Both the position numbers and the translations under genes were made by a program. A stretch of DNA of 64,000 nt from Gemmatimonadales bacterium (GTDB lineage Bacteria > Gemmatimonadota > Gemmatimonadetes > Gemmatimonadales > GWC2-71-9). This document shows, in pieces, positions 8,811 through 62,465 of the stretch (positions are counted from its first letter, which is position 1; each line of letters starts with the position of its first letter). Under the pieces are notes generated by a model. The model was given only the letters and a program-made list of their open reading frames with translations. It did not search any database and was not told the DNA's origin. The DNA lies in the NCBI GenBank assembly GCA_965248285.1, contig CBDFJJ010000010.1:133062-197061 (forward strand), given 5' to 3'.

Positions 8811-8851
8811 GGACTCCCGTGATTTGATGACTGTTCATAGTGCAAGACTAG

Positions 8852-8884: not shown

Positions 8885-8977
8885 TGAGCACCGTAAACCT
8901 GGATCTACTCCGGCTGGCTCACACCACTACCTCACCGCACCGACGCGAGCCCCTTCTATCCCTGGCCGGAAAACTGG

Positions 8978-9400
8978 CTAGAAAAACGGGTCGACGGCCT
9001 TGACCAACTCGGGCCGCGCTGGCCGGACCTTGATGTAAGCGTTCTGTTCCTCGGCATCGGTTTCAGTTTGGGTTCGCGACCCACCACCAGCCGCCCCGAT
9101 CGTCAGGACGCGCTCACCGACGACGTGCCAAACGATCTCGACGTGTCCAATCTTCGACCCGCGAAACCAGAAGAGTAGGCAGCCCGGTTTGAGCCTTGTC
9201 ACCTCACGGCCCTGAAAACGCTTGGCGAGTCCGTCGGCCGTCCAATCGCCTTGCGCCGGTAGGATTCCGACCGACTTGAGGTGCTCGATCACCAAGCCCG
9301 AGCAGTCGAAGCCCGCGATCGGGTCGTCGCCGCCCCAGCGGTACGGCTTGCCGAGCTCTCGCTCCCAGAGGTAGAGCGCGATCGAGCGGAGGTTCTTCAC
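8978..9400 (-). CDS. NlpC/P60-family peptidoglycan hydrolase (endolysin), prophage L
   Basis: PYRWGGDDPIAGFDCSGLV catalytic Cys motif and GHVEIV His. About 95% identical to 56616-57038. Confidence 0.85.
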   Translation of the reverse strand: MKNLRSIALYLWERELGKPYRWGGDDPIAGFDCSGLVIEHLKSVGILPAQGDWTADGLAKRFQGREVTRLKPGCLLFWFRGSKIGHVEIVWHVVGERVLTIGAAGGGSRTQTETDAEEQNAYIKVRPARPELVKAVDPFF

Positions 9401-9660
9401 TTCTTTCCGTTCTTCCAGCCGCGCAACACGGCGGTAAAGCTGTGCGTGTACGCCGTGCCGAGCCCAAAGGCAATCAACGGCACGGCCACCGGCCCGCCGA
9501 TCCGCTCGAGCAACAACCCGGCCACGCCTGCCAACGCCACGAGGCTCCCGGTGATCATCCGGGGGATCTTGTCGCCGACGAGGCGCCGGTCCACCACTTG
9601 GGGAATCGGCTCACCGCACTTCGGACACGTGTTCACCGACGGGATCATCATGTTGGTCAT
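9397..9660 (-). CDS. zinc-ribbon two-TM membrane protein of the lysis cassette
   Basis: CPKCGEPIP plus two TM stretches. Protein identical to 56356-56619. Confidence 0.55.
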   Translation of the reverse strand: MTNMMIPSVNTCPKCGEPIPQVVDRRLVGDKIPRMITGSLVALAGVAGLLLERIGGPVAVPLIAFGLGTAYTHSFTAVLRGWKNGKK

Positions 9661-9884
9661 CGTTCACTCCTTACTGCGGGACAGCTCGGCCACGGTGGGA
9701 TATCCAACGCCCGCTCGATCCGACACATGCGCGTGTTCATCTCGGCGACCGAACGCTGCGTGTCGTTCCAGGTGCGGCCGAGACTAAATCCCGTGGTGAG
9801 GACGGCGATGATGAGCACGATCGCCGCAATCGCCCAGCCGGGGATGTGGACGCCGTGGTTCAATCGCGATATCGTCATCATCAT
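9657..9884 (-). CDS. holin-like single-TM protein
   Basis: 75 aa with one TM, immediately upstream of the lysin. Homolog at 56132-56359. Confidence 0.5.
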   Translation of the reverse strand: MMMTISRLNHGVHIPGWAIAAIVLIIAVLTTGFSLGRTWNDTQRSVAEMNTRMCRIERALDIPPWPSCPAVRSER

Positions 9885-12643: not shown

Positions 12644-12996
12644 GGGGCGTAGTCCGCCGGATCGTCCCCGAACCAGATCACCGCAGGAATATCGACGGCC
12701 TTCTCGACGTCCGTCGGTCGCTTGTCGGCGACCTTGACCTGCGCTCGGATCTTCCCGTCGGGACTGTCGCGCTCGACCTCGACACGAAGAAAATTCGCTC
12801 GCTCGCTCGGGTTGAGTTCTCGCACGGTCTGACCGAGTCGCGTGCCGATCGCCGCGATGTCGGGGCGGTCGGCTTCCGCCGCGATGACGTGGAGAAATTG
12901 CGGCGTCTCGTGATACACGCGGGCGTTATCGAAGACCTCTACGCCGTTTCCGTCGAGCCACTCAGCGCGGGGAATCCGCCAAAAGGATCGGGTCAT
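12640..12996 (-). CDS. small phage tail-associated protein
   Basis: 118 aa, ATGA-coupled on both sides. Homolog at 52998-53366. Confidence 0.55.
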   Translation of the reverse strand: MTRSFWRIPRAEWLDGNGVEVFDNARVYHETPQFLHVIAAEADRPDIAAIGTRLGQTVRELNPSERANFLRVEVERDSPDGKIRAQVKVADKRPTDVEKAVDIPAVIWFGDDPADYAP

Positions 12997-13802
12997 TGTT
13001 GGGTCGCCTTCCGACAGTCGCCGAGCGAATGGACCCCAGCCACGGACATGAGGTCGATCAAGTTGAAATAGCCCGGCGTCCCGACGAGCGAGACGCTCAG
13101 AATCGCCGAGCCCCATTTTTTATCGGTCGCGAGCGCTTGCGCGGCCGACGCGGAACCGCTCGCCTCGGTCCCACTGTTGATCGATTGATGCATCTGCACG
13201 CTCCCGTCGGCGTTCAGTACGGCACGGAGTTCGACGACATCGTTGATCGCCGGAAGCGCGGCGGAAGTCGACTCAACGCTCGCGGCGGCCCCGTCGGTGT
13301 GCCGGACCCGCCATCCCGTTTCCGCTCGGATGTGCAGACTTGGATTCGAGGCTGCGATCTGCATGAGCCGCAGCCCCGAATCGGCGATGATCGCGCCCCG
13401 CTCGCGGAATCGCGCGTAAAAGGTCGCCTCCTGCATCCCGACGTCGAAGGGAAACGTCATCGATTCCGTCGCGCGAATGACGGGGCTTCCCGCCGTCTCG
13501 ATGTAGGACGAGGCAAACGGTACGTTGACCTCCCCCTGCCCGCCCCACAGAATCACGTAAGACGCACCATCCCCGTTGTACGTGACGCTGGCGTCGGTTG
13601 TTGCCAGATAGCAGATGAGCCGGGCCGTCGTGACGCCGCCGCCGATGCTGCCGACGACGACACAGCGATACCAGTCATTACCGAGGGCTTCGATGTACGA
13701 ACGAGCGTGGGATCCCGTCCCGCCAACCGTGCCCTCGGTGCCCTTCGCGCCCGTACTGAGAAAAGCGCCACACTGGCAGGAAATTCGAGGGTGGGGGGGC
13801 GT
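12993..13802 (-). pseudogene. 5'-truncated homolog of tail gene 51673-53001
   Basis: The open frame has no start upstream of 13556. Homology to the R copy begins near 13765. The C-terminus ...GVHSLGDCRKATQQ is shared. Confidence 0.7.
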
Positions 13803-14312: not shown

Positions 14313-15097
14313 ATGCGATTCCAAGCGGGGTTTTTTGGGGGCCTGCTTCTGGTGTTCAGTGCGTGTGGTGATCCCACGATCGCAAACTTGGACCATGATA
14401 GTGGCGTCATGCTGGAAAGCCGTTCCGGCACCATAGTTGCAAAAGAAGTGATGCAAGACGGGCTGAGCCAGATTACCCGAGAGGTGGCATTGGCACTGGC
14501 CAATCCCATGGTTCGTCAATCTGTTTTTAAGGCGCTCCACGCGTCGCCGTATCCTGAACACAAGCTCCACTTAGGCACCTTCCTACGACAGAGGGACGCG
14601 ATATTGGGACCCGCCATGGCTACTGCCCGCGGCCAAGCGGCTACCGTGGCGGATGTGCTAGCGACGTTGGACGGCATCATTGACCTCGAATTCTACATGC
14701 CCGTGAAGGATCATTTTGCCGAATGGGAAGGAGGCAACAATCTTATTGTGGCTAGTGTTCTTCGGGACGATGGAACGATACCGATCGCGTTTGATCTTTC
14801 AGGAGACCGTTTTCCGATCGCGTCCGCCGAAGACCCCCCAGAAGTTCCGGCACTAGTGCTGGTGCCGGTAGAAACAGATTTTTCTCGCCCGCAGGTTTCG
14901 ACATACGAGGCCGGGGCTGCAGCTAGCGCGGCAACCACCCCCGGAATCTACATGATGAGTGAGTATATTCCGGACGACCATGAGGGTTGGTCGGCGGGCG
15001 ATCCGGAGTTTGAGGTGCACGTCTTTCCTGAGGTATCTGGCGAGTTTGTGGATAAGTATTGTTCTGGTAACGGAAAGACCGGTTCGCGCAACTATGA
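14313..15097 (+). pseudogene. lipoprotein gene, 3'-truncated by IS256 copy 2
   Basis: Lipobox LLLVFSAC. The frame runs straight into the IS256 end at 15098. Confidence 0.6.
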
Positions 15098-16217
15098 GAG
15101 GTATTGTCAAATGTTGTGGATCGGTGAGTGATCAAGCGGCGACCTTCCGATCCGTGTTCTCTTTGTCAGTTTCCTGCATACCATCTTTGAATTGTTCTCC
15201 TGCCAACACCAGGGGGAGAAGTTCTGGAGCGTTGAGTTTCCGCCAACGTTGCTGCGCCATCTCCAACAGCTTGAACGCCATCGTCAGCCCTTTGCTCCGC
15301 GAGCCCGCTCCCTTGGTCACGCGCTGTCGTAACCGGACCGTCGCGAAGGCAGACTCGATCACGTTCGTCGAACGGATATGTTTCCAATGCTCGGCCGGAA
15401 AATCAAAATGGCTGTACAGGTGCTCCTGGTCCCGCGTGAGCGAGGCGACCGCCTTGGGATACTTGGCCGCATACGCGGTGGCGAAACGCTCGACCAGCGC
15501 CTCGGCCTCCGCACGCGACTCCGCATACATCATCTCGCGCAACACCCGCTTCGCCGCCGGCTGCAAACGTTTCGGAAGCTTGTCCAACACGTTGGCCATC
15601 CGGTGCACCCAGTCGCGCTGCTGCCGCGTCGCCGGCCACACCTCCCGCACCGCTGCCCAGAACCCCAACGCGCCATCCCCAATCGCCAGCACCGGGGCCC
15701 GCATCCCCCGACGCTTCAGATCGCGCAACACCGCCAACCAGCTCTCCGTGCTCTCCCGATAGCCGTCCTCCACCGCGATCAGCTCTTTCGTCCCATCCGC
15801 CCGGGCGCCCAGCATCACCAGCGTACACAGCCGGTCGGCCTCGAGGCGAATGTTGAAGTGGATCCCGTCGACCCAGACGTACACATACTCCCGATCACGC
15901 AGATCACGCTGGCGAAACGCCTGGTATTCCCCCTCCCACGCCGCCGTCAATCGCGTGATCGTCGTCGGGGACAAGCCTGATGCGTCCTCACCCAACAAGA
16001 TCGGCAACGCCTCGCGAAAATCTCCCGTCGACAGACCGCGCAGATACAACACCGGCAAGACCTCCGCCACCTTCGGCGACCGCCGCATATAGGGAGGCAA
16101 AATCTTGCTCGTGAACTGCGCCCGCATACGACGGTCATGCACCCGTGGCGCGGTCACCGTGACCGTACCAGCACCCAGCGTCACCTTGCGGGGACGGGCT
16201 TTGCCATTGCGCACCAC
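15098..16217 (-). mobile_element. IS256-family copy 2, truncated
   Basis: Matches 6044-7163 of copy 1. Identity ends at ...GCGCACCACC (16217). Confidence 0.85.
15132..16217 (-). pseudogene. IS256 transposase lacking the first ~58 codons
   Basis: The 361-aa ORF is identical to residues 59-419 of 6079-7338. Confidence 0.85.
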
Positions 16218-17275
16218 CCCGGAACATTTGTTACGCGCGTTATTGCTGCAGGTGGTGTATACGATCCGGAGCGAGCGGCAGCTGATGGAGCAGCTCGATT
16301 ACAACATCCTGTACCGATGGTTTGTGGGGTTGAATCTGGACGACGCGGTGTGGGTGCCGACGGTCTTTACGAAGAATCGGACGCGGCTGGTCGAGGGGGG
16401 CATCGCGGATGCGTTTCTGGCCGAAGTGTTACAGGAGGCGGAGCGGCGGGCGTTGTTGTCGAATGAGCATTTCACCGTCGACGGGACCTTGCTGGACGCG
16501 TGGGCGAGTCAGAAGAGTTTTCAGCCGAAGGCCGGCACCCGCCCGCCAACGGACGATGATCCGGGGAATCCGAGCGTGACGTTTCGCCAGGAGAAACGGA
16601 CGAATGCGACGCATGCGTCGCGGACGGACCCGGAGGCGCGGTTGACGCGGAAGAGTGGGGGGCAAGGCGCGCAATTGGCGTACTTGGCGAGTGTGTTGAT
16701 GGATAATCGGCACGGGCTCGTGGTGGCGACCGACGTGACGCAGCCCGGCTACGAGGCGGAGTGTGCGAGTGCGCTGGCGATGGTGGGGAGCTTACCGCCG
16801 ACGGCCCGGCGTCGGACGTTGGGGGCGGACAAGGGTTATGATCGGTGCGGGTTTGTCGACACGCTGCGGGCGTTGGGCTGGACGCCCCACGTCACGCCGA
16901 ACGTGCACCGCACGCGGTTGCGGAGCGCGGTGGATGGCCGGACGACGCGCCATCCCAGCTATGCGATCAGTCAACGGCAGCGCAAAAAAGTGGAAGAGAT
17001 CTACGGGTGGGGCAAGACGATTGGGTTGTTACGCAAACTCCGACATCGCGGGACCCCGCGGGTCGGGTGGGTGTTTACGTTCACGGCCGCGGTCTACAAT
17101 CTGATGCGGATACGCACCCTGACCCTGGCCGGAGGCAGCCCCTGATGGGGCAGTGTGGGCCGCATTCGTCACGCCGACCGCACCGCGGGGGCGGTAATAG
17201 GGGACCGCACGCTGGTACACCGTCGTGTTACCCGGACAAACGCGGCTCACCATCAATTTTTCCGCAACCTGCTAG
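16218..17275 (+). mobile_element. IS5-family copy B, 5'-truncated, abutting IS256 copy 2
   Basis: Frame starts mid-domain (PEHLLRALLLQVVYTIRSERQLMEQLDYNILYRWFVGL). The 346-aa track ORF is a read-through chimera. Confidence 0.8.
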
Positions 17276-31117: not shown

Positions 31118-31722
31118 CCTCCGGGTAAGACCGGGGCGTGAAAGTGCGTGGCCAACCCGCTCAGGAAGAGTCGAGAGAATTGCTCGGACAAGGCCTCCGG
31201 AGAGACCGATCCAGTCGGGTCATACCAGTTGTATATCCAGTTCATCATGCCGAACAGCGCGTAGCTCGCTACGTGCGGATCGATTCCGGACTCGTGGGCG
31301 CCGTCTGCCGATTGGATGAGGTCCGTCAACAGTGCGACATAACGACGCTTGAGTGCGTTGATGGTATCGAGGCGCTCTCCCTGCAGGCTCTCGGCCTCGT
31401 GCGACAGCACCTTCGTTTCACTCATGTGTCCTGCAAAAAACATAACGTGGTGGCGTATGAAACGTTCGAGTCGTTGCCGGGGGTCGGTGCCCGGCGCGAG
31501 GGCCGTCTCGGCGCCCGAGAGGACCCGTGTGAAGCAGCGTTGCTGGATGAGGAAGAGCAGTTCGGCTTTGCCTTCTACGTAATGGTAAATACCGGCGAGG
31601 CTCATGCCGGTCTCGCGCGCCGGGTCTCGCATGGTCGTCCGATGGTACCCCTTGTCGGCAATGACCCGGGCCGCGGTAGCCAGTAGGCGATCGACTCGTT
31701 GGTCGTAGGAGAGCATTACCAT
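31114..31722 (-). CDS. TetR-family transcriptional regulator
   Basis: N-terminal HTH (AARVIADKGYHRTTMRDPARETGMSLAGIYHYV). Heads the acyl-CoA cluster. Confidence 0.85.
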   Translation of the reverse strand: MVMLSYDQRVDRLLATAARVIADKGYHRTTMRDPARETGMSLAGIYHYVEGKAELLFLIQQRCFTRVLSGAETALAPGTDPRQRLERFIRHHVMFFAGHMSETKVLSHEAESLQGERLDTINALKRRYVALLTDLIQSADGAHESGIDPHVASYALFGMMNWIYNWYDPTGSVSPEALSEQFSRLFLSGLATHFHAPVLPGG

Positions 31723-32893
31723 TCGAACGTTCGTTCGGGGAGCCTAAAGGATAGGCTAGGAAAGGTCAAGCCGCTCGTCTGGATGACCTTATATTGCTAT
31801 ATGACAAGTGTTTACGATGCCTCACTTAACATGCCGCCCTCGCCGGCGTCTACCGGTTTGTGACGACACCGGTGCCCCTCGGTGATTCGCCGCCCGATGG
31901 CGATCTCATCGAGGCCTGGCGCGACGGAGACGAAGCCGCTGCCGGCGCGCTGGTCCGGCGCCACGCCACGGCTCTGGCACGGTTTCTATCCGGGGCCGGG
32001 GCGGGTGAGGATGTCGATGACCTGGTTCAGGAGACTTTTTTCCGCGCCTTCAGACGGATCGAGACGTTCAAGGGGGCTTCCAGTTTCCGGACGTGGCTCA
32101 TGACGATTGGGTCGAACATCCTGAAGGATGCATGGCGCCGCCGATCGCGGCGACCGGTGGTGGCGCTCGAGGATCGCGAGATCGTCGACCAGGCCAGCGA
32201 CCCTCAGGGCGAGGCCGTCGCCGAGGATGTCGCGGCCCGGCTGGGAGCGTGCGTCAAGACCCTCCCCAGACTGCAACGCCCGGGCCGCGGTAGCCAGTAG
32301 GCGATCGACTCGTTGGTCGTAGGAGAGCATTACCATTCGAACGTTCGTTCGGGGAGCCTAAAGGATAGGCTAGGAAAGGTCAAGCCGCTCGTCTGGATGA
32401 CCTTATATTGCTATATGACAAGTGTTTACGATGCCTCACTTAACATGCCGCCCTCGCCGGCGTCTACCGGTTTGTGACGACACCGGTGCCCCTCGGTGAT
32501 TCGCCGCCCGATGGCGATCTCATCGAGGCCTGGCGCGACGGAGACGAAGCCGCTGCCGGCGCGCTGGTCCGGCGCCACGCCACGGCTCTGGCACGGTTTC
32601 TATCCGGGGCCGGGGCGGGTGAGGATGTCGATGACCTGGTTCAGGAGACTTTTTTCCGCGCCTTCAGACGGATCGAGACGTTCAAGGGGGCTTCCAGTTT
32701 CCGGACGTGGCTCATGACGATTGGGTCGAACATCCTGAAGGATGCATGGCGCCGCCGATCGCGGCGACCGGTGGTGGCGCTCGAGGATCGCGAGATCGTC
32801 GACCAGGCCAGCGACCCTCAGGGCGAGGCCGTCGCCGAGGATGTCGCGGCCCGGCTGGGAGCGTGCGTCAAGACCCTCCCCAGACTGCAACGC
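31666..32893. repeat. 614-bp tandem duplication, no differences seen (31666-32279 and 32280-32893)
   Basis: The unit contains the TetR 5' end, the divergent promoter region and the first ~140 codons of the ECF sigma gene. Junction ...CTGCAACGC|CCGGGCCGCGG. Confidence 0.9.
31860..32300 (+). pseudogene. truncated ECF sigma factor copy (region 2 only), product of the duplication
   Basis: First 140 aa identical to 32474-33028, then 6 junction-derived codons and a stop. Confidence 0.8.
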
Positions 32894-51673: not shown

Positions 51674-53001
51674 TGGCGATTCATCCTTCGCAGATCCTGT
51701 TCTACGCCGGCGGCCGCTCGCTCGAGTTGTTTGGGCCTCCGTCACGGCGCACCGCGCCGATCGCGCGGCGCGGCGAAGACATTATCGAAACGTTCAGCCG
51801 AGCGTCCACCGGCAGTTACGTCGACGCCAAGGGCGAGGTGAAGCTGGCGGAATCCGCCGTGCAGCGTATCGAGATGGCCGATATTGTTACCGCCGGCGTC
51901 TTTGATACCCCGACGTTCTTGCTGGAAAAACGCCGAACCAACGGGGTCATACGCGCGGCGGAGTTCGATAACGCCTCCTGGACGAAGACGCGCGCGAGCG
52001 TGAGCGCGAACGCCGACACGGCTCCAGACGGCGCGACGGTCGCCGATCGACTGATCGAGGATAGCACGGCGTCGGCCACCCACTTCACGCGCCAAGACAT
52101 CACGATCACGGCGGACGGCAACGTCGTCTGGTCCGTCTTCGCCAAAGCGGGGACGCGGAGTATGATCGCCCTGCGGATCGAGGACACGACAGCGGCGGAT
52201 ACCGTCACGACGTGGTTCAATCTCAGTACGGGCGCGAAGGGCACGGAGGGCACGGTGACCGGGACGGGCGCACACGCGCGGTCGTTCATCGAGGCGCTGG
52301 GGAATGGGTGGTATCGGTGCGTGATCGTGGGCAACATCGGCGGGGGTGTGACGACGGGCCGCCTCCGTCTTTTTCTGGCAACCGTGGACGCTCAGACGGG
52401 CTATAGCGGCGACGGGTCCTCTTACGTGATCCTCTGGGGCGCGCAAGGCGAGGTCAACGTCCCGTTTCACTCTTCCTACAACGCCACGGTGGGGAGTACG
52501 GTCGCAGGATCCCACGAGCAGATGCACTACACGTTCACCGCGCGACCCCAAGCGATGACGGCCTACCTGCGCTTTGTCGAGCGGGGAAACATTATCGCCT
52601 CGACGACGGCGCGACTGCTACACATTGGGAGCGGTACGCAGGGCGCTACTCCCCGCTTCGAGATACAGGAATCGGGCGGGTTCTATCGCGTGCGCCACGA
52701 TAACGGCACCATTGTCAACGTCAAGAATTTGGCCGCCGCGCCTGCGTTCGGGGACACCGTCGAATTGGTGGGACAGTTAAACGCCAACGGTAGCATCAAG
52801 ATTATTCAGTCTATTAACGGTGCTGCCGCCACGGAGCAGGAGCAGACCACCGCTGCCACACTCGCGGCGGCGTGGGCCGGCACGGAGATTTGGATTAACA
52901 GTGTTGCCACGAGTAGCCCCGGCTTCGCGAAGTATCTGGACGTCGCGGTCTTCGCGGGCGTCCACAGCCTAGCCGATTGTCGGAAGGCCACCCAACAATG
53001 A
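51673..53001 (+). CDS. phage tail/baseplate protein
   Basis: 442 aa. The C-terminal half is paralogous to 12993-13802. Confidence 0.5.
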   Translation: MAIHPSQILFYAGGRSLELFGPPSRRTAPIARRGEDIIETFSRASTGSYVDAKGEVKLAESAVQRIEMADIVTAGVFDTPTFLLEKRRTNGVIRAAEFDNASWTKTRASVSANADTAPDGATVADRLIEDSTASATHFTRQDITITADGNVVWSVFAKAGTRSMIALRIEDTTAADTVTTWFNLSTGAKGTEGTVTGTGAHARSFIEALGNGWYRCVIVGNIGGGVTTGRLRLFLATVDAQTGYSGDGSSYVILWGAQGEVNVPFHSSYNATVGSTVAGSHEQMHYTFTARPQAMTAYLRFVERGNIIASTTARLLHIGSGTQGATPRFEIQESGGFYRVRHDNGTIVNVKNLAAAPAFGDTVELVGQLNANGSIKIIQSINGAAATEQEQTTAATLAAAWAGTEIWINSVATSSPGFAKYLDVAVFAGVHSLADCRKATQQ

Positions 53002-53366
53002 CCCGTTCGTTTTGGAAGATTCCGCGCGCCGCCTGGCTGACCACCGACGAAGAGGGCACGATCGTCAACGCCTTCGAGAACGTCGTCGTCTACCACGAGA
53101 CGCCGCAATTTCTCCACGTCATCGCGGCGGAAGCCGACCGCCCCGACATCGCGGCGATCGGCACGCGACTCGGTCAGACCGTGCGAGAACTCAACCCGAG
53201 CGAGCGTGCGAATTTTCTTCGTGTCGAGGTCGAGCGCGACAGTCCCGACGGGAAGATCCGAGCGCAGGTCAAGGTCGCCGACAAGCGACCGACGGACGTC
53301 GAGAAGGCCGTCGATATTCCTGCGGTGATCTGGTTCGGGGACGATCCGGCGGACTACGCCCCATGA
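52998..53366 (+). CDS. small phage tail-associated protein
   Basis: ATGA-coupled on both sides. The C-terminal ~85 aa are identical to 12640-12996. Confidence 0.55.
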   Translation: MTRSFWKIPRAAWLTTDEEGTIVNAFENVVVYHETPQFLHVIAAEADRPDIAAIGTRLGQTVRELNPSERANFLRVEVERDSPDGKIRAQVKVADKRPTDVEKAVDIPAVIWFGDDPADYAP

Positions 53367-56131
53367 GAGCGATTCATCCCGAGCTCGTCCGCATGTTGCG
53401 CAAGGCCCCGATTACCGGACGTGCGCGTGTGATCCCGGAAGCGATCGTGCCCGTTAATGAAGACGTGCGAGCCTTCGACACCGACTGGAACAACGCCGAT
53501 TCGCCGACCGGCCTCCAGGTCGCGCCGAACGGCGACCTGCGGCTCACGGGGTCGTTCTCGACTACGGTCGAGCACACCAATAGCGATACGTACATGACCG
53601 ATCTCGACCGGGCCTCGCCCTGGTCGGTTGCCAAGGTCACGTGGGCAGGCACGCTGGACCGCGACTTCGAGATCCAGCAAGTCAAAGCGTACCTGCACCC
53701 GAAACGGACCGCGGCGGCGAAAGAAGTCGTCTGGTGGAAGATGATACTCTACCGCGTGCATCGGGTGTGGCCGGCAAGCGTGTTCATCGCGCAAACGTTG
53801 GAGATCCAGGCGATCGGCTCGGCCAAACGCGTCGCGGCCACGGGGACCGCGGAAGCGGAATACATCTTCGACTTCAGCGGTAGCGATAACGGGGCCAAGC
53901 CGAAGCTCGAGCGGCCCATCATCATGCCGGGGGCGATGGCGATCCGTCCCACGACCTACATCCGCATCCTGGCGTTGAAGGCCGATGGATCCGCCGCGGG
54001 TAACGTGGGATTCAGCGCCGATACGGCGACACCGAGTGTCACTACGTCAGGCGTGACGCTTGAGCAAACCACGTTGACCGAGAACGCGGTTGGGGACGGA
54101 CGCGGGCGCTGGTCGGAGCCCGATGTCCCTGTCGACGAGTGTCCCCGCCTGGCGATCATAGCGGAAAGCTATTCGGATGCGACGGTCACGTTTTCCGTCG
54201 CCGGCGGGGGCACGATTATCAATCTCGGGGCCGCGCCGACGAAGGATCTCGAGTGTGTCCTGGTGGGACGGACCCCCAGTGACACCGCGATCGTGGGCGA
54301 GATTCGCAAAGCGGCGCCCGACGCCTGGACGGAGTTTTTGGACGGTGATCTCATCGGTGTCGATAATTCGCTACCTGGTGGCACCGGTGGCAAGGACCTG
54401 TCTGGTCTTACACCGACACAGCAAACGTACGAGATTCGCGCCCAACTGAAAACCAACACCGCGCTGAACACGACTCCGCGGTTAAAACAGTTGGGGGTGC
54501 GCGAGCTCACCCGGATCTCCTTCGACCGCCTCGCCACCGTCGACGTCGAGTGGAATGTGCATCCGTACGAGATGCGGAGCGAGATCAGCCGCGCGGTGAT
54601 CACGAGCATGCGCGACGGCCGCGAGGATTTCAACGACCAGATTACCGAGTTACTGGTCGACTACGACGTGGCCGAGATTGCCTGGCGGATCATGATCGGG
54701 CACCCGGATCTCGATCGCCACAAGTGGCTGCACATCGACACGTTTCCGATCGCCTACGATTACGATCCGCGCGCGACGGAGATCGAATGCCAGTGGGATT
54801 CGGCCCTCACTTTGCTGCGGGCGGCCCTGCCGGTGGCCTCTGGTTCGCCGCTGACGCGCGACATCCTGAACTACAACGCCACCGTGGGGATCGAGACGCT
54901 CAAGGAGGTGAGCGATGACCTCCTCGACGGGCAGATCGGGCTCGCGGGCAAGTACCGCGGGCAAGGCATCACCGACGACACGACCACGATCGCGAAGCGG
55001 ATCGGGGAGCGGGATCCCGACATGGTCGTCACGGCTTTGTCCGATGCGAAGACCGAGGCTGACGCGGTTGCGTTTATTGCCGGCGGCGCATGGGGGACGG
55101 ACGCAGGACGGGTGCGGTTCTTCGATCTGTTTGCTGACGACTTCGTCGTCATGCTCTTTCATGAGCGGGAGATCACCGTCGAGTCCGTGAGTCCCGGCCT
55201 CGCGCTGCGCACGCCCGAAGTGTTTCTCGCGTACGATTACGACGTGCAGAGTCGCCAGTACACCTTGGAGCATCGCGGGTTTCATGGGGTGGCATTGACC
55301 GCCCTCGGGATCTCGAACTTGGGACCGCCGAAACGGCTCTCGGATACGGTCGGCAAATGGATCGACGACACCACGCTGGCCGAAACCGTCGTCGAACGCC
55401 ACTTCAACGCGTTTGGCATGGGCGTCCGGTTGTGGCGCTTTCGGTGCATCTACCCCTACCCCGAACTGCAATTCGGCGATCGGGTGATTGTGCCCACGAA
55501 ACAATTCGTGATGCGGGATCCGATCGGCAGCCGTGAATTGCGCGGTCAGCTCTGGGTGATTGGGACGATCGTCGGTGTCCACGATGCGTTGGGAACCGCG
55601 TTTACGCTCTGGGTGCGCAGTCTCTCGGACATCCTCGCGAGTAGCGAGGCGGTGACGATCGAGCTCCGGAAACGCCTCGTCGCCCGGTGCTACCATAGCG
55701 TGGCCACGGTCTCGTATAGCGCGGGCGGAACGGGTAGCGGTTCGCTGGCGTGGGATAACGAAGTCTTCGACCCCGAAGGGATGCACGACAACTCGACCAA
55801 CAACGAACGGTTCACCGTCCCGACGACGGGCACCTATCGCATTCAAGGCGCCATCAAGTATTCGAATTACGCCGTGACCGGCAGCGGGTACGTGCTTCTC
55901 GAGATCAAGAAAAACGGCGCCACCACCCTGCACTACATCCTCAACGCCGGCAATACCTTTCCACCCGCTGCGTCAGGTTCCCTGCCCTACACCGCGTTGG
56001 TTGATCTCACGGCCGGGGACTACATCACGCTCGATATCCGCTGCGCCGTGATCGTCTCCGGGTCTGCCCAGATGGACATCGAGGGCGGCGCGGCGACGGA
56101 TTCGACCTATGAGATCGCCTGGGAAGGCTAG
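53363..56131 (+). CDS. phage tail host-specificity protein, prophage R copy
   Basis: 922 aa from the ATG at 53363. The track ORF from 53012 is an over-extension. Confidence 0.75.
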   Translation: MRAIHPELVRMLRKAPITGRARVIPEAIVPVNEDVRAFDTDWNNADSPTGLQVAPNGDLRLTGSFSTTVEHTNSDTYMTDLDRASPWSVAKVTWAGTLDRDFEIQQVKAYLHPKRTAAAKEVVWWKMILYRVHRVWPASVFIAQTLEIQAIGSAKRVAATGTAEAEYIFDFSGSDNGAKPKLERPIIMPGAMAIRPTTYIRILALKADGSAAGNVGFSADTATPSVTTSGVTLEQTTLTENAVGDGRGRWSEPDVPVDECPRLAIIAESYSDATVTFSVAGGGTIINLGAAPTKDLECVLVGRTPSDTAIVGEIRKAAPDAWTEFLDGDLIGVDNSLPGGTGGKDLSGLTPTQQTYEIRAQLKTNTALNTTPRLKQLGVRELTRISFDRLATVDVEWNVHPYEMRSEISRAVITSMRDGREDFNDQITELLVDYDVAEIAWRIMIGHPDLDRHKWLHIDTFPIAYDYDPRATEIECQWDSALTLLRAALPVASGSPLTRDILNYNATVGIETLKEVSDDLLDGQIGLAGKYRGQGITDDTTTIAKRIGERDPDMVVTALSDAKTEADAVAFIAGGAWGTDAGRVRFFDLFADDFVVMLFHEREITVESVSPGLALRTPEVFLAYDYDVQSRQYTLEHRGFHGVALTALGISNLGPPKRLSDTVGKWIDDTTLAETVVERHFNAFGMGVRLWRFRCIYPYPELQFGDRVIVPTKQFVMRDPIGSRELRGQLWVIGTIVGVHDALGTAFTLWVRSLSDILASSEAVTIELRKRLVARCYHSVATVSYSAGGTGSGSLAWDNEVFDPEGMHDNSTNNERFTVPTTGTYRIQGAIKYSNYAVTGSGYVLLEIKKNGATTLHYILNAGNTFPPAASGSLPYTALVDLTAGDYITLDIRCAVIVSGSAQMDIEGGAATDSTYEIAWEG

Positions 56132-56359
56132 ATGATGATGACACTCCCTCGCTTAAATCACGGTGTCCACATTCCCGGCTGGGCCATCACCGCGATTGTC
56201 TTAGTGGTGGCCGTGCTGACGGCGGGGTTCAGCGTCGGCCGCACCTGGAACGACACGCAGCGTTCGGTCGCCGAGATGAACACGCGCATGTGTCGGATCG
56301 AGCGGGCGTTGGATATCCCACCGTGGCCGAGCTGTCCCGCAGTAAGGAGTGAACGATGA
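56132..56359 (+). CDS. holin-like single-TM protein
   Basis: Homolog of 9657-9884. Confidence 0.5.
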   Translation: MMMTLPRLNHGVHIPGWAITAIVLVVAVLTAGFSVGRTWNDTQRSVAEMNTRMCRIERALDIPPWPSCPAVRSER

Positions 56360-56619
56360 CCAACATGATGATCCCGTCGGTGAACACGTGTCCGAAGTGC
56401 GGTGAGCCGATTCCCCAAGTGGTGGACCGGCGCCTCGTCGGCGACAAGATCCCCCGGATGATCACCGGGAGCCTCGTGGCGTTGGCAGGCGTGGCCGGGT
56501 TGTTGCTCGAGCGGATCGGCGGGCCGGTGGCCGTGCCGTTGATTGCCTTTGGGCTCGGCACGGCGTACACGCACAGCTTTACCGCCGTGTTGCGCGGCTG
56601 GAAGAACGGAAAGAAGTGA
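56356..56619 (+). CDS. zinc-ribbon two-TM lysis-cassette protein
   Basis: Identical protein to 9397-9660. Confidence 0.55.
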   Translation: MTNMMIPSVNTCPKCGEPIPQVVDRRLVGDKIPRMITGSLVALAGVAGLLLERIGGPVAVPLIAFGLGTAYTHSFTAVLRGWKNGKK

Positions 56620-57038
56620 AGAACCTCCGCTCGATCGCGCTCTACCTCTGGGAGCGGGAGCTCGGCACGCCGTACCGCTGGGGCGGCGACGACCCGATCG
56701 CGGGTTTCGACTGCTCGGGGTTGGTGATCGAGCACCTTAAGGCGGTCGGGATCCTGCCGGCGCAAGGCGATTGGACGGCCGAGGGGCTCGCCAAGCGGTT
56801 CGAGGGCCGCGAGGTGACCAAGCTCAAACCGGGCTGCCTACTCTTCTGGTTCCGCGGCTCGAAGATCGGGCACGTCGAAATCGTATGGCACGTGATCGGG
56901 GAACGCGTCCTGACGATCGGGGCGGCTGGTGGTGGGTCGCGCACCCAGACTGCAGCCGACGCCGAGGAGCAAAACGCCTATATCAAGGTCCGGCCAGCGC
57001 GGCCGGAGTGGGTCAAGGCCGTCGATCCCTTTTTCTAG
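56616..57038 (+). CDS. NlpC/P60-family endolysin, prophage R
   Basis: PYRWGGDDPIAGFDCSGLV and GHVEIV motifs. Confidence 0.85.
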   Translation: MKNLRSIALYLWERELGTPYRWGGDDPIAGFDCSGLVIEHLKAVGILPAQGDWTAEGLAKRFEGREVTKLKPGCLLFWFRGSKIGHVEIVWHVIGERVLTIGAAGGGSRTQTAADAEEQNAYIKVRPARPEWVKAVDPFF

Positions 57039-57273
57039 CCAGTCTTCCGGCCAGGGATAGAAGGGGCTCGCGTCGGTGCGGTGCGGTGGTGGTGTGAGCC
57101 AGTCGCTGTAGATCCACTGAGTGATGCCCACAAAAAGGTATGGGTCAGTTTGAAATCTGACCCTGTTGCCCTCCCGCCCGTAGGTCCCCTAGCTTTCAGC
57201 TATGCCGAAGAAGAAACCCGAACCGGGCAAGCTCCGCGAGGATGTTGTGCCTCTCTCGCTACCCGCTCTGGTG
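57030..57273. repeat. 244-bp inverted repeat, left arm (partner 60807-61050)
   Basis: I reverse-complemented the right arm and compared it base by base: identical over 244 nt. Confidence 0.9.
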
Positions 57274-57535
57274 CCGGGGCGTTCTGCCTGAGTAGATAGA
57301 GCCGGTACGCAGTATCAAGATTCATCCAGAACTGAGCGCTAGTGCCCAACGCGGCACTGAAAAGCACTGCTGCGTCTGGCGACAGGGTGCGCTTGCCGGA
57401 GATGATACTACTTACAAAGCTCTGGTGGCGGCCAATGATTCTCGCAAACTGCTTTTGTGTCCAACCCCGCTCTTCCAACTCGTCCCGTAAGAACTCACCA
57501 GGGGGGAACGCTTCAGCCGGTGCAAATTCCGTCAT
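57200..57535 (-). CDS. HigA-type HTH antitoxin; last ~24 codons read into the repeat arm
   Basis: GEFLRDELEERGWTQKQFARIIGRHQSFVSSIISGKRTLSPDAAVLFSAALGTSAQFWMNLDTAY. Confidence 0.7.
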   Translation of the reverse strand: MTEFAPAEAFPPGEFLRDELEERGWTQKQFARIIGRHQSFVSSIISGKRTLSPDAAVLFSAALGTSAQFWMNLDTAYRLYLLRQNAPAPERVAREAQHPRGACPVRVSSSA

Positions 57536-57550: not shown

Positions 57551-57848
57551 TTAGTGGTAATCTTCAATCGCAATTATTCCAACCTTCTTGTTTGGGCTCT
57601 CGCCTCTGAGTTCAACCACAAGTCGCCATTGTTTGTTGATACGAAGAGATCGCTGGTGCTTGCGTTTCCCTTTCAGTTTTTCGAAGCGTAGCGATTTGTG
57701 CTTGTATAGGTCCCGTTCGTCGGCCGCCGCTCGGATAGCCTGCATCACCTTTCGGAATCCTCGATCTACGGCGTCCCCCGAACCACCCGTAGCACCACGA
57801 TCAGCCTCTAGTTTTTGAAGGGCGGCGTCCCTCGTGCTCTACTTCCAT
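57551..57848 (-). pseudogene. HigB-type toxin with an apparent 1-nt frameshift
   Basis: C-terminus LRFEKLKGKRKHQRSLRINKQWRLVVEL...IEDYH. The N-terminal homology (DAALQKLEAD...FRKV) has no start. The ATG at 57846-57848 is one frame off. CCC run at 57829-57831. Confidence 0.6.
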
Positions 57849-57945
57849 GTCCAAGGATAGTCGATTACCGTAAAATTATCGGTAGTGGGTCATTTTGAAT
57901 TGTTGAGGCTCTGCGCGACGAGCTTGCCCCTGTTAGCTTTCATAT

Positions 57946-58200
57946 ATGCCGAAAAAGAAGCCCATTGCGAAAACCAAGCTCCGTCCCGACATGAACGAGA
58001 CGGCGCATCGCGTGATGCTGGAAGCGACAGGCCAGGTCCCTAAGACTGTCCCGCCCGGTGAGCGCGAGGATAGCGAAAAAAACCCCGAGGCGGTGAAACG
58101 TGGGGCGAAGGGCGGCGAGGCCCGGGCTAAGGTACTGACCGACGAGGAGCGCGAAAGAATCGCGCAGACGGCCGCCCTGGCGCGGTGGAAGAAGGACTAG
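57946..58200 (+). CDS. small basic protein (MPKKKP..., C-terminal KGGEARAKVLTDEERERIAQTAALARWKK)
   Basis: 84 aa. Its start context is homologous to the truncated ORF inside both 244-bp arms. Confidence 0.5.
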   Translation: MPKKKPIAKTKLRPDMNETAHRVMLEATGQVPKTVPPGEREDSEKNPEAVKRGAKGGEARAKVLTDEERERIAQTAALARWKKD

Positions 58201-58688
58201 TAGTCCGACCCGGACTCAGCCATTCCGCGTGCGATCCGACGCAGCTCCACGTCGAGGGTGAAGTCTTTCTCGACAGTGATAGGTTCTTGGTCGGGATTGA
58301 TACGATTCCAGTGGTCCATGTCGAAGGTAAGCTGGGTGATGTCGCCGACGGTCTGTTCACGGCGCATCGTCTTCGACGCCTCCATCGGTGTCCGGTCGGC
58401 CTCGTCGATGTCGATCCACAGGTGTAGCTGGTCCCGATTCTCGTCGGTCACGACGTACATGTGGTTGACCCGGTAAGGCTCTCCCGTCTCGGGGTCCGTC
58501 CGCGTCTCCTCGCGCGCCGCTTGGGAGAATCTACGGACGAGTTGTTCACGCGGGTCCTTCGGCTCCGGCAACGGATACCCCATCGTATCAATGGCCCAGG
58601 CGACCACGGCCTTCATATCCACCGACGGATTACCGGTCTCGTCTCGGTAGTGACGAATGAGTTTCTGCATCTCTTGATTCTGGCTCAT
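58197..58688 (-). CDS. hypothetical 163-aa protein, no family recognised
   Basis: Second gene of an operon with the XRE-M78 fusion (20-nt gap). Confidence 0.55.
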   Translation of the reverse strand: MSQNQEMQKLIRHYRDETGNPSVDMKAVVAWAIDTMGYPLPEPKDPREQLVRRFSQAAREETRTDPETGEPYRVNHMYVVTDENRDQLHLWIDIDEADRTPMEASKTMRREQTVGDITQLTFDMDHWNRINPDQEPITVEKDFTLDVELRRIARGMAESGSDY

Positions 58689-58708
58689 TGTGCTTGGTCC
58701 TGAAGTGA

Positions 58709-59854
58709 CTAGGAAACGATTGGAGCGACATCACCCCATCCGTCGTGCATGACGTTGGGCAGGACGACTGACCGCACCCTGGCCAAATGCTTTTGAAAGC
58801 GGTCGTATCGCTCTGTGGCGTGTTGGATCTGGCCAGCCACTAGGCCAGGGTGAACATTCACCAGTTTAGCAAAGCTCAGAAGGTCCCTTTCGGTGAATAT
58901 CGGGGCCTTGCACGCTATGAATTGATTTAGGGTCTTCGTTGGAACGCAAAAATCAGCCGCAGCCTTGTTGGCGATACGTTCCTGTTCCTCTACGTCGGGG
59001 CCGATGCCCGCTCGATCGCCTTCAAGTTCGGCGTCGAAAGCGACGGTGGCCCGGCCATCTCCACGCAGGACGTGCTCACATTCGTGACGGAGCACGAACC
59101 AAAAGTTATCGATGCGGTCGTGCCTCATTGTCAGGCCAATCACCGGAGACCGATCGTCGAGCCAGAAGCACACCCCATCAATCTTGGCCGACTTCAGCGA
59201 CTCAACGATCACTAGTCTGATCCCCGCTTCGGCCAAGATGCGTGGAGCCCTCCGTGCCTCTTCGGCTGAAGCCAATAGGGTACGGAGCTGCCTGATCGCC
59301 CTTTGCATCGCCTTCGTCGAGTATCGGGGCACCACCATCACGGTGGCGATCTGCCTGACGCGATACAGCCAGGCAAGCTGTGCCGGGGTCACGTCGCTGT
59401 TGACGGAGGTCTTCTTCGTTGCGTGCGGCAAGATCTCGATGTTGGATGGTGACTCCACGTCGAAAAAACTGGCCAGCGCGGATTCCACTTGCTCGGTGTT
59501 CTTCATGTCGTCGATAGCCAACCATCCTCGGCAAGTCATCTCTTTGACAGGTAGGTCGCCGTATAACTGAGCACGTCGAGCCCGACTTGGGTCGGGCATT
59601 GTCTCGATGCGTGCGCGAGCCAGGTCATAGTTCTTTTGAAGGCCCAGGAAGGTTTCGGCTGGCACACCAAAAACCTCCGACAAAGCGAGCGCCTTGGGGG
59701 CATCGAGGGGTTGCCTGTCGGTGGCAATCCGGGCCACATGGGCACGACTTATTTCCAAGACCGTCGCGAGCACTTCTTGGGTCCAGTCCTTCTGCGAAAG
59801 AAGCCACCGGATGAGTTGCCCTGGCGTCTGGAAGTCCGGCGGGTTGTTTGACAT
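58709..59854 (-). CDS. HTH (XRE/HigA-like) fused to ImmA/IrrE-type M78 metallopeptidase
   Basis: N-terminus WTQEVLATVLEISRAHVARIATDRQPL...FLGLQKNYDL. C-terminus has HEXXH (RHECEHVLRGD). Confidence 0.75.
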   Translation of the reverse strand: MSNNPPDFQTPGQLIRWLLSQKDWTQEVLATVLEISRAHVARIATDRQPLDAPKALALSEVFGVPAETFLGLQKNYDLARARIETMPDPSRARRAQLYGDLPVKEMTCRGWLAIDDMKNTEQVESALASFFDVESPSNIEILPHATKKTSVNSDVTPAQLAWLYRVRQIATVMVVPRYSTKAMQRAIRQLRTLLASAEEARRAPRILAEAGIRLVIVESLKSAKIDGVCFWLDDRSPVIGLTMRHDRIDNFWFVLRHECEHVLRGDGRATVAFDAELEGDRAGIGPDVEEQERIANKAAADFCVPTKTLNQFIACKAPIFTERDLLSFAKLVNVHPGLVAGQIQHATERYDRFQKHLARVRSVVLPNVMHDGWGDVAPIVS

Positions 59855-59927
59855 GGGAGGAATGTATGCGATGTTCGAAATAATACAACAACATTGCTTG
59901 TGCTTAGCAGTTGACTATATTATAGAC

Positions 59928-60797
59928 ATGAACAGACTGTCAGATGCCAAGCGCGCAGCAATCCTACGGTGCCTCACCGAAGGCAATTCCATCCGGTCCA
60001 CGGCCCGCATTACCGGCACCGTGAAAGCCACCGTCCTAAAGTTGCTGGTCGAAACGGGCGAGTTCTGCTCGAACTATCAGGAGCAAGTTCTACGGGATCT
60101 GGACTGCAAGCGTATCGAAGCCGACGAAATTTGGGCCTTCATCGGAGCGAAACAGAGGAACCCGAAGAAGGCGGGGGACGGTGACATTTGGACGTTCACG
60201 GCTCTCGACCCCGATTCCAAGCTGATGGTCGCATGGCTCGTTGGCGACAGAAGCCCCAAGAGTGCCACCATTTTCATGAAGGATCTGGCGTCACGAGTCT
60301 CGGACAAGATCCAGCTAACGACGGATGGTCACGGGATGTACCTGAGCGCCGTACGTGCGGCTTTCAGTTTCCTCGACGTAGACTACGCACAAGTTGTGAA
60401 AAAATACGGCCAGCTAGGGACCACAGAGGAACGGCGGCGTTACTCACCACCGACATGCACCGGGGCCAAGAAGGTCAGAATGATCGGCAACCCCAACCCG
60501 GACCTGATCTCAACATCCATGGTCGAGCGCAGCAACCTACAGCTTCGGATGTCTTCACGGCGATTCACCCGCTTGACGAGCGGATTCAGCCGGAAGGCCG
60601 AGAATCACGCCCACGCGGTCAGCCTGACCTTCATGGCGTACAACTTCTGCACGCTCCACGGGACCCTCACGAAGGCGCGCGGTGGCCTCAAGACGACCCC
60701 AGCGATGGCCGCTGGCCTTACAAAGCGCCCTTGGAAGATTGAGGACGTCCTGGCCCTCATGGATGGGGCGTACCGTACGACCGCGAATTCAAAATGA
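59928..60797 (+). CDS. IS1-family transposase (single-ORF type)
   Basis: N-terminal HTH (AAILRCLTEGNSIRSTARITG), then ADEIWAFIGAKQ...WTFTALD...TTDGHGMY. Confidence 0.8.
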   Translation: MNRLSDAKRAAILRCLTEGNSIRSTARITGTVKATVLKLLVETGEFCSNYQEQVLRDLDCKRIEADEIWAFIGAKQRNPKKAGDGDIWTFTALDPDSKLMVAWLVGDRSPKSATIFMKDLASRVSDKIQLTTDGHGMYLSAVRAAFSFLDVDYAQVVKKYGQLGTTEERRRYSPPTCTGAKKVRMIGNPNPDLISTSMVERSNLQLRMSSRRFTRLTSGFSRKAENHAHAVSLTFMAYNFCTLHGTLTKARGGLKTTPAMAAGLTKRPWKIEDVLALMDGAYRTTANSK

Positions 60798-60806
60798 CCC
60801 ACTACC

Positions 60807-61050
60807 CACCAGAGCGGGTAGCGAGAGAGGCACAACATCCTCGCGGAGCTTGCCCGGTTCGGGTTTCTTCTTCGGCATAGCTGAAAGCTAGGGGACCTAC
60901 GGGCGGGAGGGCAACAGGGTCAGATTTCAAACTGACCCATACCTTTTTGTGGGCATCACTCAGTGGATCTACAGCGACTGGCTCACACCACCACCGCACC
61001 GCACCGACGCGAGCCCCTTCTATCCCTGGCCGGAAGACTGGCTAGAAAAA
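60807..61050. repeat. 244-bp inverted repeat, right arm
   Basis: See the left arm. Confidence 0.9.
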
Positions 61051-61435
61051 CGGAACTCGCAGCACGAGACCTAAGTTCCTCGTCGGTCAACACGCTGTCG
61101 GGCGCTTCCCGTAAAATCGCTCCGGCCCTAACGACCGCCTCAGACAACACCGCGATCGCCTCCCCTGCCCGTGTGACTCGCTCCATGCCGTTCTTGCCGT
61201 AGGAGACGTAAACGGGACCGTTGACGACACTAGAGGGCATCGGCCCACCGTCTGAAAACACCCTCAGCGGTGCCCCTATGAGCTTGGCTAGTTGCCGTAC
61301 AAACTCCGGCGGGACCTCGTTCCGTCCTCGCTCCCACGACTGAACGGTACTACGGCCACGAAAGACGACGTCCCCAAAGTCGTCCTGGCTCATATCAAAG
61401 ATGTTCTTCCGGACGTCGCGAAGTCGCTCTCCCAT
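60983..61435 (-). CDS. XRE-family HTH regulator (CI-like), 3' end replaced by the repeat arm
   Basis: MGERLRDVRKNIFDMSQDDFGDVVFRGRSTVQSWERG. Alternative TTG start at 61480. From 61050 downward the frame translates the arm. Confidence 0.6.
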   Translation of the reverse strand: MGERLRDVRKNIFDMSQDDFGDVVFRGRSTVQSWERGRNEVPPEFVRQLAKLIGAPLRVFSDGGPMPSSVVNGPVYVSYGKNGMERVTRAGEAIAVLSEAVVRAGAILREAPDSVLTDEELRSRAASSVFLASLPARDRRGSRRCGAVVV

Positions 61436-61473
61436 ATCCTTTGCTGGACGCCAAGTTTGAGCCACATTCCCTC

Positions 61474-61524
61474 TTGACAATCTCTAATATTGAGCATATT
61501 ATAGTACCATAAGCTCAACATTAG
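61474..61524 (+). promoter_or_regulatory. sigma-70-type promoter with flanking operator half-sites
   Basis: TTGACA (61474-61479), 17 nt, TATTAT (61497-61502). Inverted CTAATATTGAGC (61484-61495) / GCTCAACATTAG (61513-61524). Confidence 0.55.
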
Positions 61525-62189: not shown

Positions 62190-62465
62190 GATCGCTCGCG
62201 CCCAACGATACATCGCCGCCGGCGACCAGCGGTTTCTCGCGTGAGCCAGACCGAACTCGTGCTCTCGTTTGTGCTCGTGGCTCTGCGCCGGATGGGTGCT
62301 CGGCTACCGCTACCACGTGCTCAAGGTGCGGGAGATACAGGCCCGTCGCATCAAGCGGATGGCGTTCGAGTGGCTGTGCTGGCGCGCCGCCGTGCAGGAG
62401 AGAAGAACGGATCAAGCAGGCCCAACAGGAGGCTCGCGAGCGTGGTGCTCAGGAGGAAGAGGGGG

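Follow-up and report, generated by a model that had tools for sequence, protein, structure and literature searches.

A cargo-carrying IS1-family element with a rearranged right flank, probably nested in a decayed sister element at the end of a lambda-like prophage

A 64-kb stretch of contig CBDFJJ010000010.1 from a Gemmatimonadales bacterium, here called the window and used for all position numbers, contains a 2,926-bp insertion sequence (IS) at 57881–60806 that lies between perfect 21-bp inverted repeats. A repeat search recovered the 21-mer GGTAGTGGGTCATTTTGAATT exactly twice in the window, against none expected in shuffles, as the left inverted repeat (IRL, 57881–57901, plus strand) and the right inverted repeat (IRR, 60786–60806, minus strand). 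The two outer genes are read on the plus strand and encode a small basic protein of 84 amino acids (p84, 57946–58200), which begins 65 nt past IRL, and an IS1-family DDE transposase of 289 amino acids in a single open reading frame (ORF; 59928–60797), which starts at a conserved MNRL at 59928 and whose stop codon falls within the right inverted repeat. Between them, on the minus strand, are cargo gene C (p163, 163 amino acids, 58197–58688) and cargo gene B (p381, 381 amino acids, 58709–59854), the latter joining a HigA-like Xre helix–turn–helix (HTH) to an M78 (ImmA/IrrE-type) metallopeptidase domain (Pfam HTH_3 and Peptidase_M78). The IS is present once in the window, and the 9-mers just outside it (AAAATTATC on the left, CACCAGAGC on the right) form no direct repeat. 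An earlier, sequence-only reading of the window had described these repeats, this gene content and the mismatched flanks, and all of them were recovered here.

The relatives used for comparison are contigs that carry relatives of the transposase or matching IS ends, numbered from L001 onwards; one scan of species-representative genomes yielded 80 further loci, and pairs of ends were called by script in 32 of these. The 32 related elements are 1.8–3.9 kb long and share the terminal consensus GGTAGTGGGTCAGTTTGAAAT. Both ends of the window element start with GGTAGTG, which is kept in the 32 relatives and fits the ISfinder rule for the IS1 family, whose terminal repeats of about 20–30 bp start with GGnnnTG. 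L001, whose transposase is 96% identical, has the matching four-gene layout, the same 21-mer ends and a 9-bp target duplication, CAACGCCCC, and L002 (transposase 92% identical) has perfect 21-mers at both ends and a 9-bp duplication, CGATCGAGC; the identical 21-mer is also terminal in L085. Perfect target duplications flank 28 of the 32 elements (9 bp in the four closest, 8 bp in 24), and one further element has a duplication in which 7 of 8 positions match. Relatives that lack a duplication are L022, L045, L072 and L085. Because other copies end on the 21-mers and are flanked by target duplications, the 21-bp repeats are the true termini of the element. The sequence-only reading had itself raised the doubt that the 21-bp sequence might not be terminal in other copies, and L001 and L002 both end on it. 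The second metagenome scan, with the 21-mer as query, reached at least 120 loci; 15 end pairs were called automatically, 8 of them with 8-bp duplications, and no weight was placed on these automatic statistics. The element had no megablast match in plasmids, and scans of viral contigs for its ends, and for those of the sister element IS' described below, found none.

Several of the other copies have peculiarities of their own. L085 (673–3595) is a complete, near-identical IS from another sample, without a target duplication between its flanks GGACGATTG and GAATCTATC, and it adjoins an SDH-type protease gene, a gene type that the sister element L003 carries as cargo. In L084 (3685–3921, 6756–6843) and L086 a 238-bp insertion interrupts the 3' end of the transposase gene, so that 41 nt of the IS follow it, and the left 52 nt of the IS are replaced by an IS1595-family element. 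Two metagenome contigs, L118 (186–2713) and L170 (124–2717), share one insertion site; L170 has a normal 8-bp duplication, CGAAACCG, and the flanks of L118 are exact reverse complements of each other, probably an artefact of short-read assembly arising from the perfect terminal repeats.

The assignment of the transposase to the IS1 family, proposed in the sequence-only reading, is borne out by a score of 38 bits against Pfam PF03400 (DDE_Tnp_IS1, gathering score 24.1), by an NCBIfam search in which IS1 is the best model (59 bits, cut-off 100) and the IS6, IS1595 and IS630 models score far lower, and by the names of its homologues. These number ~8,000; almost all match PF03400 and many are named IS1 family transposase. 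Residues D66, D133 and E200 are invariant in the alignment. The hosts of the relatives are found in Gemmatimonadota, Acidobacteriota, Actinomycetes, Chloroflexota, Proteobacteria and other groups. Since IS1 is the best NCBIfam match yet falls below its cut-off, the protein is a divergent member of the family. Unlike classical IS1, the element lacks the insA/insB' −1 frameshift arrangement and has a single 289-residue ORF with its own N-terminal HTH region, and it therefore belongs to the single-ORF subgroups and not to IS1 proper. Taken as a whole, it is a single-ORF member of the IS1 family that looks structurally intact. ISfinder recognises a passenger-bearing, ISMhu11-type subgroup of single-ORF IS1 elements, which the present element resembles in its IS1 profile match, its GGTAGTG ends, the 8–9 bp duplications of its relatives, the single ORF and the passengers inside the inverted repeats.

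Three passenger genes had been attributed to the element. Two of them, B and C, are indeed carried as passengers, whereas the 84-amino-acid gene belongs with the transposase. A p84 profile, used to score presence and position across 33 elements, found a homologue in all 33, in 29 of them within the first 450 bp and on the transposase strand, and the homologue is kept irrespective of the cargo that lies between it and the transposase; for this reason the p84 gene is a conserved core gene of this IS1 clade, and the cargo consists of two genes. Homologues of p84 amount to 403 cluster representatives at E ≤ 1e-3 in a library of 1.8 billion proteins. They share the motif RPRDxNQLAKxIVDxATGE and a C-terminal GGxKGGKARAxxLTPExRxEIAxKAAxARW, and the C-terminal motif also occurs at the N-terminus of P63C cargo proteins. 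The L003 contig begins within a p84 gene. No significant match to p84 was found among Pfam, NCBIfam, PADLOC and PDB profiles. These basic left-end proteins of 70–90 amino acids show no sequence relationship to InsA and have no zinc finger.

The slot between p84 and the transposase holds cargo on the opposite strand that differs from relative to relative. Elements with transposases 89–96% identical carry three cargoes: B and C in the window element, L001 and L084–L087, a P63C protein in L002, and an SDH-type protease (SDH_protease) with a 63-amino-acid gene in L003. Across the family the cargo gives Pfam matches to HTH/Xre (10), Peptidase_M78 (5) and P63C (4), and further matches to C5 and N6/N4 DNA methylases, AbiEii-type AAA, HNH, HipA-like kinase, PemK/MazF and HigB, a repertoire of toxin–antitoxin (TA) or defence type. 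Between the window element and L001 identity is 96% for the transposase, 75% for p84, 57% for B and 36% for C; the cargo diverges far faster than the chassis. The same inverted repeats and gene layout recur at other sites in L001, L085 and L084 at 89–98% DNA identity. A transporter IS (tIS) is one with passenger genes between its termini (PMC9330008); here B and C lie inside the inverted repeats of an element with copies at other sites, and it is thus a transporter IS, from a widespread cargo-carrying clade of the IS1 family. A cultured alphaproteobacterium, Roseicitreum antarcticum, carries an element of the B–C type (CP061498.1, ~1373.4–1376.2 kb, L088; also L089 and L090) in which transposase, Xre-M78-like, p163-like and p84-like genes follow one another.

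The N-terminus of p381 matches TIGR02607 (HigA), and its M78 domain carries HECEH, an instance of the HExxH motif. Residues 5–362 match positions 54–394 of 402 in the PADLOC profile PD-Lambda-2_B (PDLC03982) at E 1e-47. PD-lambda-2 of E. coli is a three-gene, TA-like abortive-infection system that was found experimentally (Vassallo et al. 2022, PMC9519451), in which A is HigB-like, B is an Xre-peptidase protein that is toxic alone and neutralised by A, and C is needed for defence (PMC9519451). Gene C of the window element is the downstream partner of the Xre-M78 gene, and its homologues accompany B homologues in L001, L015, L038, L044, L058, L067 and L071; more than 120 homologues are known, all as hypothetical proteins. 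Its very confident AlphaFold2 model (predicted local distance difference test, pLDDT, 94) combines three helices and a four-stranded sheet with a further helix of 32 residues. A Foldseek comparison of this model with PDB and BFVD gave no match at E ≤ 0.001, and nothing significant was found for p163 among Pfam, NCBIfam, PADLOC and PDB profiles.

In the distant relatives L015, L038, L044, L067 and L071 the slot contains a HigB-like gene, a B gene and a p163 homologue in the order A–B–C. No HigB-like A gene lies upstream of B in the window element, where the divergent intergenic region between B and the transposase (59855–59927) is 73 bp long and leaves no space for one; B with a p163-like gene and without A is likewise found in L001, L084–L087 and Roseicitreum antarcticum L088–L090. 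The cargo is the B–C version of the three-gene HigB-like/Xre-M78/C operon of the distant relatives. The likeness to PD-lambda-2 lies in the middle component, with its HigA-like Xre HTH and peptidase, and in the small third gene that follows it, and the distant relatives add the preceding HigB-like gene, which gives the same three-gene order. The module differs from PD-lambda-2 in that the window element has no HigB-like A, the third gene has no PADLOC match to C, and the whole is transposon cargo; p163 is only a positional analogue of PD-lambda-2 C. Reasoning by analogy with PD-lambda-2, we think it most likely that B and C, in moving with the IS, serve as a TA-like module for abortive infection or addiction.

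One part of B is set apart from the rest. In comparisons with L084 and L085, the identity of B is ~97% over its last 70 residues and only ~47% over the HTH (residues 8–67); that of C is 98%. In the DNA, the N-terminal part of the Xre-M78 gene at 59650–59854 forms a divergent HTH relative to L084 (4837–5040) and L085 (1624–1830) in copies that are otherwise 95–98% identical, and IS positions from ~1400–1500 to 2013 have no megablast alignment between near-identical copies. A promoter-like site on the minus strand (59943–59914), recognised by consensus match only, overlaps the transposase start. The DNA of the Xre-M78 HTH appears to be a hypervariable specificity segment beside the transposase promoter region.

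To the left of the IS is a lambda-like prophage (terminase at 41212, portal at 43812, S49 protease at 45421) that includes a fibre-like protein of 1,039 amino acids (53012–56128) and an NlpC/P60 gene (56616–57038). The window also contains an inverted paralogous tail end at 8900–13761. The NlpC/P60 gene and the next 100 bp are 92% identical to 8900–9885, and the homology ends at an A-run just before 57137; past the A-run the paralogue has a terminator hairpin (8850–8900) where the DNA beside the IS has GGTATGGGTCAGTTTGAAAT, and an element-free prophage end would be expected to read ...CCCACAAAAA and then the terminator. Here begins a sequence (57137–57238, plus strand) that aligns to the left end of the IS. 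Its terminal repeat IRL', GGTA-TGGGTCAGTTTGAAAT, is the family consensus with a 1-nt deletion (one G), and 65 nt past it ATG MPKKKPEPGKLR starts a p84 homologue, with the spacing and protein start found in the IS. The match to the IS in end consensus, 65-nt spacing and p84 start identifies 57137–57238 as the left end of another member of the family, IS'. A second copy of this end lies inverted at 60842–60943, to the right of the IS, and a search of the window for the core end motif gave four matches against 0.01 expected.

The remainder of IS' is decayed. The HigA-like ORF B' (57203–57535, minus strand; TIGR02607, HTH_3) corresponds to the N-terminal part of an Xre-M78 protein, HTH plus linker, and resembles the N-termini of cargo B proteins. 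Longer Xre-M78 homologues have a REAxLRxxFPVRE linker behind the HTH, to which the tail of B', ERVAREAQHPRGACPVR, can be aligned; B' is therefore an Xre-M78 gene cut after ...PVR and fused to the p84' start. Beside it is A' (57554–57848, minus strand; Pfam HigB-like_toxin), a HigB-like gene of IS' with its ATG at 57848 that is frameshifted after MEVE. A three-frame translation gives MEVE in one frame and ...RDAALQKLEAD... in another, where intact relatives have MEIEFADKSLALIETD, and the frameshift (after codon 4–5) was judged against the intact A genes of L015, L038, L044, L067 and L071. Of IS', neither the transposase nor the right end is present. The insertion point of the IS, 32 bp upstream of the A' ATG, falls in the presumed divergent region between A' and the transposase gene of IS'. 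The segment 57203–57848 is not an intact HigBA type II TA system with a stand-alone HigA antitoxin, since the HigB-like gene is frameshifted and the apparent HigA is a truncated Xre-M78 N-terminus.

The repeat adjacent to the IS, given as 244 bp in the sequence-only reading, measures 248 bp; it is inverted and 100% identical, and it contains the left end of IS', which had gone unseen. Its left arm (57026–57273, plus strand) stands in its native context, as judged from the NlpC/P60 paralogue, and comprises the last 13 bp of NlpC/P60 with the DNA downstream (57026–57136), from where it runs through the IS' left end into the 3' part of B'. It ends 607 bp left of the IS, inside codon 88 of B', at a site (57273/57274) that is uninterrupted. 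The right arm (60807–61054, minus strand), found by repeat search, is an inverted partial copy whose first base is the next base after IRR (junction J1, 60806/60807). At its outer joint (J2, 61054/61055) it interrupts an Xre gene: the ORF at 60983–61480 reads 24 codons into the arm, and the paralogue at 3819–4730 encodes 303 amino acids. An inverted-duplication flank bounded by the IS end was found only in the window copy among the 34 element calls covered by the inverted-flank comparison. A search of the 64-kb window for a second AAAATTATC, as expected of the lost duplication, found none, and junction J1 did not appear in a metagenome scan. The boundary of the duplication coincides with the IS terminus to the base and the 'empty' site in the left arm is intact, which marks J1 as a secondary joint that the transposase made with the right end; J2 is a second, illegitimate joint. 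The DNA joined at the right end (60798–60825; 57255–57273) contains GCTACCC, which is like the IS terminus CACTACC, and a hairpin with a 12-bp stem spans J1 between the terminus and the joined DNA; the GCTACCC may reflect targeting of end-like sequences, or chance.

With long perfect inverted repeats and an IS-end-like sequence in each arm, the whole 4,029-bp segment 57026–61054 might itself be taken for the mobile unit, with 248-bp terminal inverted repeats and the 21-bp repeats internal to it. This is scarcely credible given that its outer borders, GTCGATCCC and CGGAACTCG, show no direct repeat, that the left arm is continuous with NlpC/P60 in an arrangement conserved in the element-free paralogous prophage, and that the 21-mers are the ends in other copies. 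IRL' is moreover one nucleotide short, and the IS ends found in the two arms are both left ends.

We think it probable that these features record an intact cargo-carrying IS1 element, with a TA/defence-like B–C module, that was nested in the decayed IS' at the prophage end and whose right end was rejoined to an inverted 248-bp copy of nearby DNA. IS' would first have inserted just after NlpC/P60 at the end of the lambda-like prophage and then decayed, through the 1-nt deletion in IRL', an internal deletion that fused the p84' start to the truncated B', and the frameshift in A'. The present IS would then have inserted 32 bp upstream of A'. In a third step the right end of the IS would have been joined, in inverted orientation, between 57273 and 57274, 607 bp left of the IS, so that IRR came to abut the inverted 248-bp copy. 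The original right flank would have been lost in the process, and with it the other copy of the target duplication, all that remained of IS' on that side and the 3' end of an Xre gene. Such a secondary joint at the right end, with loss of the original flank, would explain the missing target duplication, which is 8–9 bp in 28 of the 32 relatives. The sequence-only reading had likewise ascribed the missing duplication to a rearrangement after insertion and had tied it to the adjacent repeat, and the finding that the right arm starts at IRR supports that view. The mechanism may have been an attack by the right end, intramolecular or between sisters and possibly one-ended, after which a template switch into the Xre gene, or a deletion, completed the structure.

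An alternative route for the third step would start from an earlier, larger inverted duplication that an adjacent deletion later cut back. Such deletions belong to the classical activities of IS1, and as a full account of the locus, in which a longer inverted duplication of the prophage end and IS' came first and an adjacent deletion by the IS (intramolecular replicative transposition, direct orientation) then trimmed one copy to 248 bp, this has a minor though appreciable chance of being right. It explains the precise IRR joint without a duplication and the coincidence of the repeat's inner limit with the IS end, and large paralogous segments in inverted orientation abound in the window. It needs, however, an unexplained prior inverted duplication that includes 111 bp of prophage DNA outside IS', it still leaves J2 truncating the Xre gene, and no duplicated sequence could be traced beyond the 248 bp. 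The rejoining of the right end proposed above resembles the intramolecular rearrangements of IS1 in E. coli in that an exact IS terminus becomes linked to a site close by on the same molecule without a matching duplication; it differs from the known E. coli products, adjacent deletions and duplicative inversions, in that there is one IS copy and 248 bp of target-side DNA are duplicated in inverted orientation. The J1 joint could come from a textbook duplicative inversion, but such an event would leave the target-side DNA unduplicated.

Hybrid flanks might also arise by homologous recombination between two IS copies at different sites, the 248-bp repeat then being unrelated. Related populations do contain multiple near-identical copies, and L022, L045, L072 and L085 also lack duplications; such an exchange predicts a reciprocal copy in which ...CGCCCCGG CACCAGAGC precedes IRL and AAAATTATC follows IRR. 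We consider this history improbable, as there is a single copy in the 64-kb window and as recombination between copies cannot yield a duplication that starts at the IS terminus, where the right flank copies DNA from 607 bp away and the target is left intact. The contig might instead be chimeric around the IS. Related contigs come from low-coverage metagenome assemblies (with names like ctg..._3x_l), and L118 has an obviously artefactual inverted flank where L170 has a normal duplication. An assembly artefact is nonetheless unlikely because neither J1 nor J2 lies at a shared repeat that could mislead an assembler; both junctions are unique sequences, and the arm lies 607 bp from IRL, whereas an artefact of the L118 type reuses the immediately adjacent flank.

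Several observations weigh against the nested-element history and the module assigned to it. After a standard duplicative inversion there should be two IS copies, and the window has no second one; L085 also lacks a duplication, and loss of the duplication may be common here for other reasons. The rearranged structure was read from the assembled contig. Exact-protein look-ups of the transposase, NlpC/P60, Xre-165 and HigA, in a collection from which the window's own proteins were not retrievable, gave no match and hence no sibling or empty-site contig; since no sibling locus from before the rearrangement was found, we infer the order of events and the mechanism of duplication. The transposase score below the NCBIfam IS1 cut-off counts on the same side. 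As for the module, p163 and five homologues (the C proteins of relatives) had no match to the PADLOC PD-lambda-2 C profile at E ≤ 0.01, and the HigB-like proteins of relatives had none to PD-lambda-2 A, so that the PD-lambda-2 link draws on B and gene order.

In the literature searched, which did not include ISfinder, we found no description of a constant p84 gene or a TA/defence bias of the cargo in such elements, nor of a PD-lambda-2-like B–C variant or of sister-in-sister nesting with an inverted duplication bounded by an IS end. Set beside the ISMhu11-type subgroup, the elements would stand apart in having cargo dominated by TA/defence-type genes. TA genes are integral passengers of Tn3-family transposons, according to a preprint (bioRxiv 10.1101/848275). 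The likeness is that a TA-type module sits beside the transposition genes inside a transposon; the differences are another transposase family, another TA type and a cassette-like slot, which in sister elements is filled with different cargo. The window element is an example of a widespread, little-described cargo-carrying IS1 group and not a new kind of element. Precise ends are thereby documented for a large and taxonomically broad IS1-type group with TA/defence-like cassettes and a conserved, uncharacterised small protein, and the group offers a concrete route for PD-lambda-2-like modules between genomes and into prophages. The locus also illustrates clearly how one sister element came to be nested in another and how an IS end then gave rise to an inverted duplication, and the copy in Roseicitreum antarcticum, as one in a cultured host, makes the biology testable.

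A more far-reaching proposal, tentative and rather doubtful as a whole, is that the clade is a dedicated shuttle for TA/defence cassettes. In such a scheme p84 and the transposase would form a fixed two-gene chassis, cassettes would be swapped between sister elements by recombination in their shared ends, and nesting of the kind seen here would provide the opportunity. In members that carry B, its hypervariable HTH might recognise the divergent region of 73 bp, so that transposase expression would answer to a stress or phage signal sensed by the M78 peptidase, in the manner of ImmR/ImmA of ICEBs1, and B–C might be a self-contained PD-lambda-2 variant without the HigB-like partner.

The surroundings of the element contain further repeats. 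The regions 8900–13761 and 52221–57116 are related lambda-like tail ends, inverted and ~40 kb apart, each with a fibre-like gene and NlpC/P60; their identity is mosaic at 77–98%, with 10334–13020 and 55672–52974 matching at 98%, which suggests that prophages have exchanged DNA by recombination or gene conversion. For the arms beside the IS, an invertible tail-fibre segment of the Gin/Cin type was considered and rejected, there being no invertase gene and the IS and TA genes lying between the arms. Rfam and tRNA scans of the element region found nothing. Beyond the two tail ends, a 62-nt inverted repeat (3210–3270 and 62388–62449) is 98% identical, and the Xre paralogues at 3819–4730 and 60986–61480 are 40% identical; these outer regions appear to be distantly paralogous in mirror orientation. 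Two copies of an IS256-family (Transposase_mut) element, 99.8% identical, lie at 6038–7165 and 15091–16218, and a 553-bp direct repeat lies at 1–553 and 16723–17275; the left third of the window appears to be an IS-rich, rearranged zone. Towards the middle of the window there is a perfect 615-bp tandem duplication (31665–32279 and 32279–32893).

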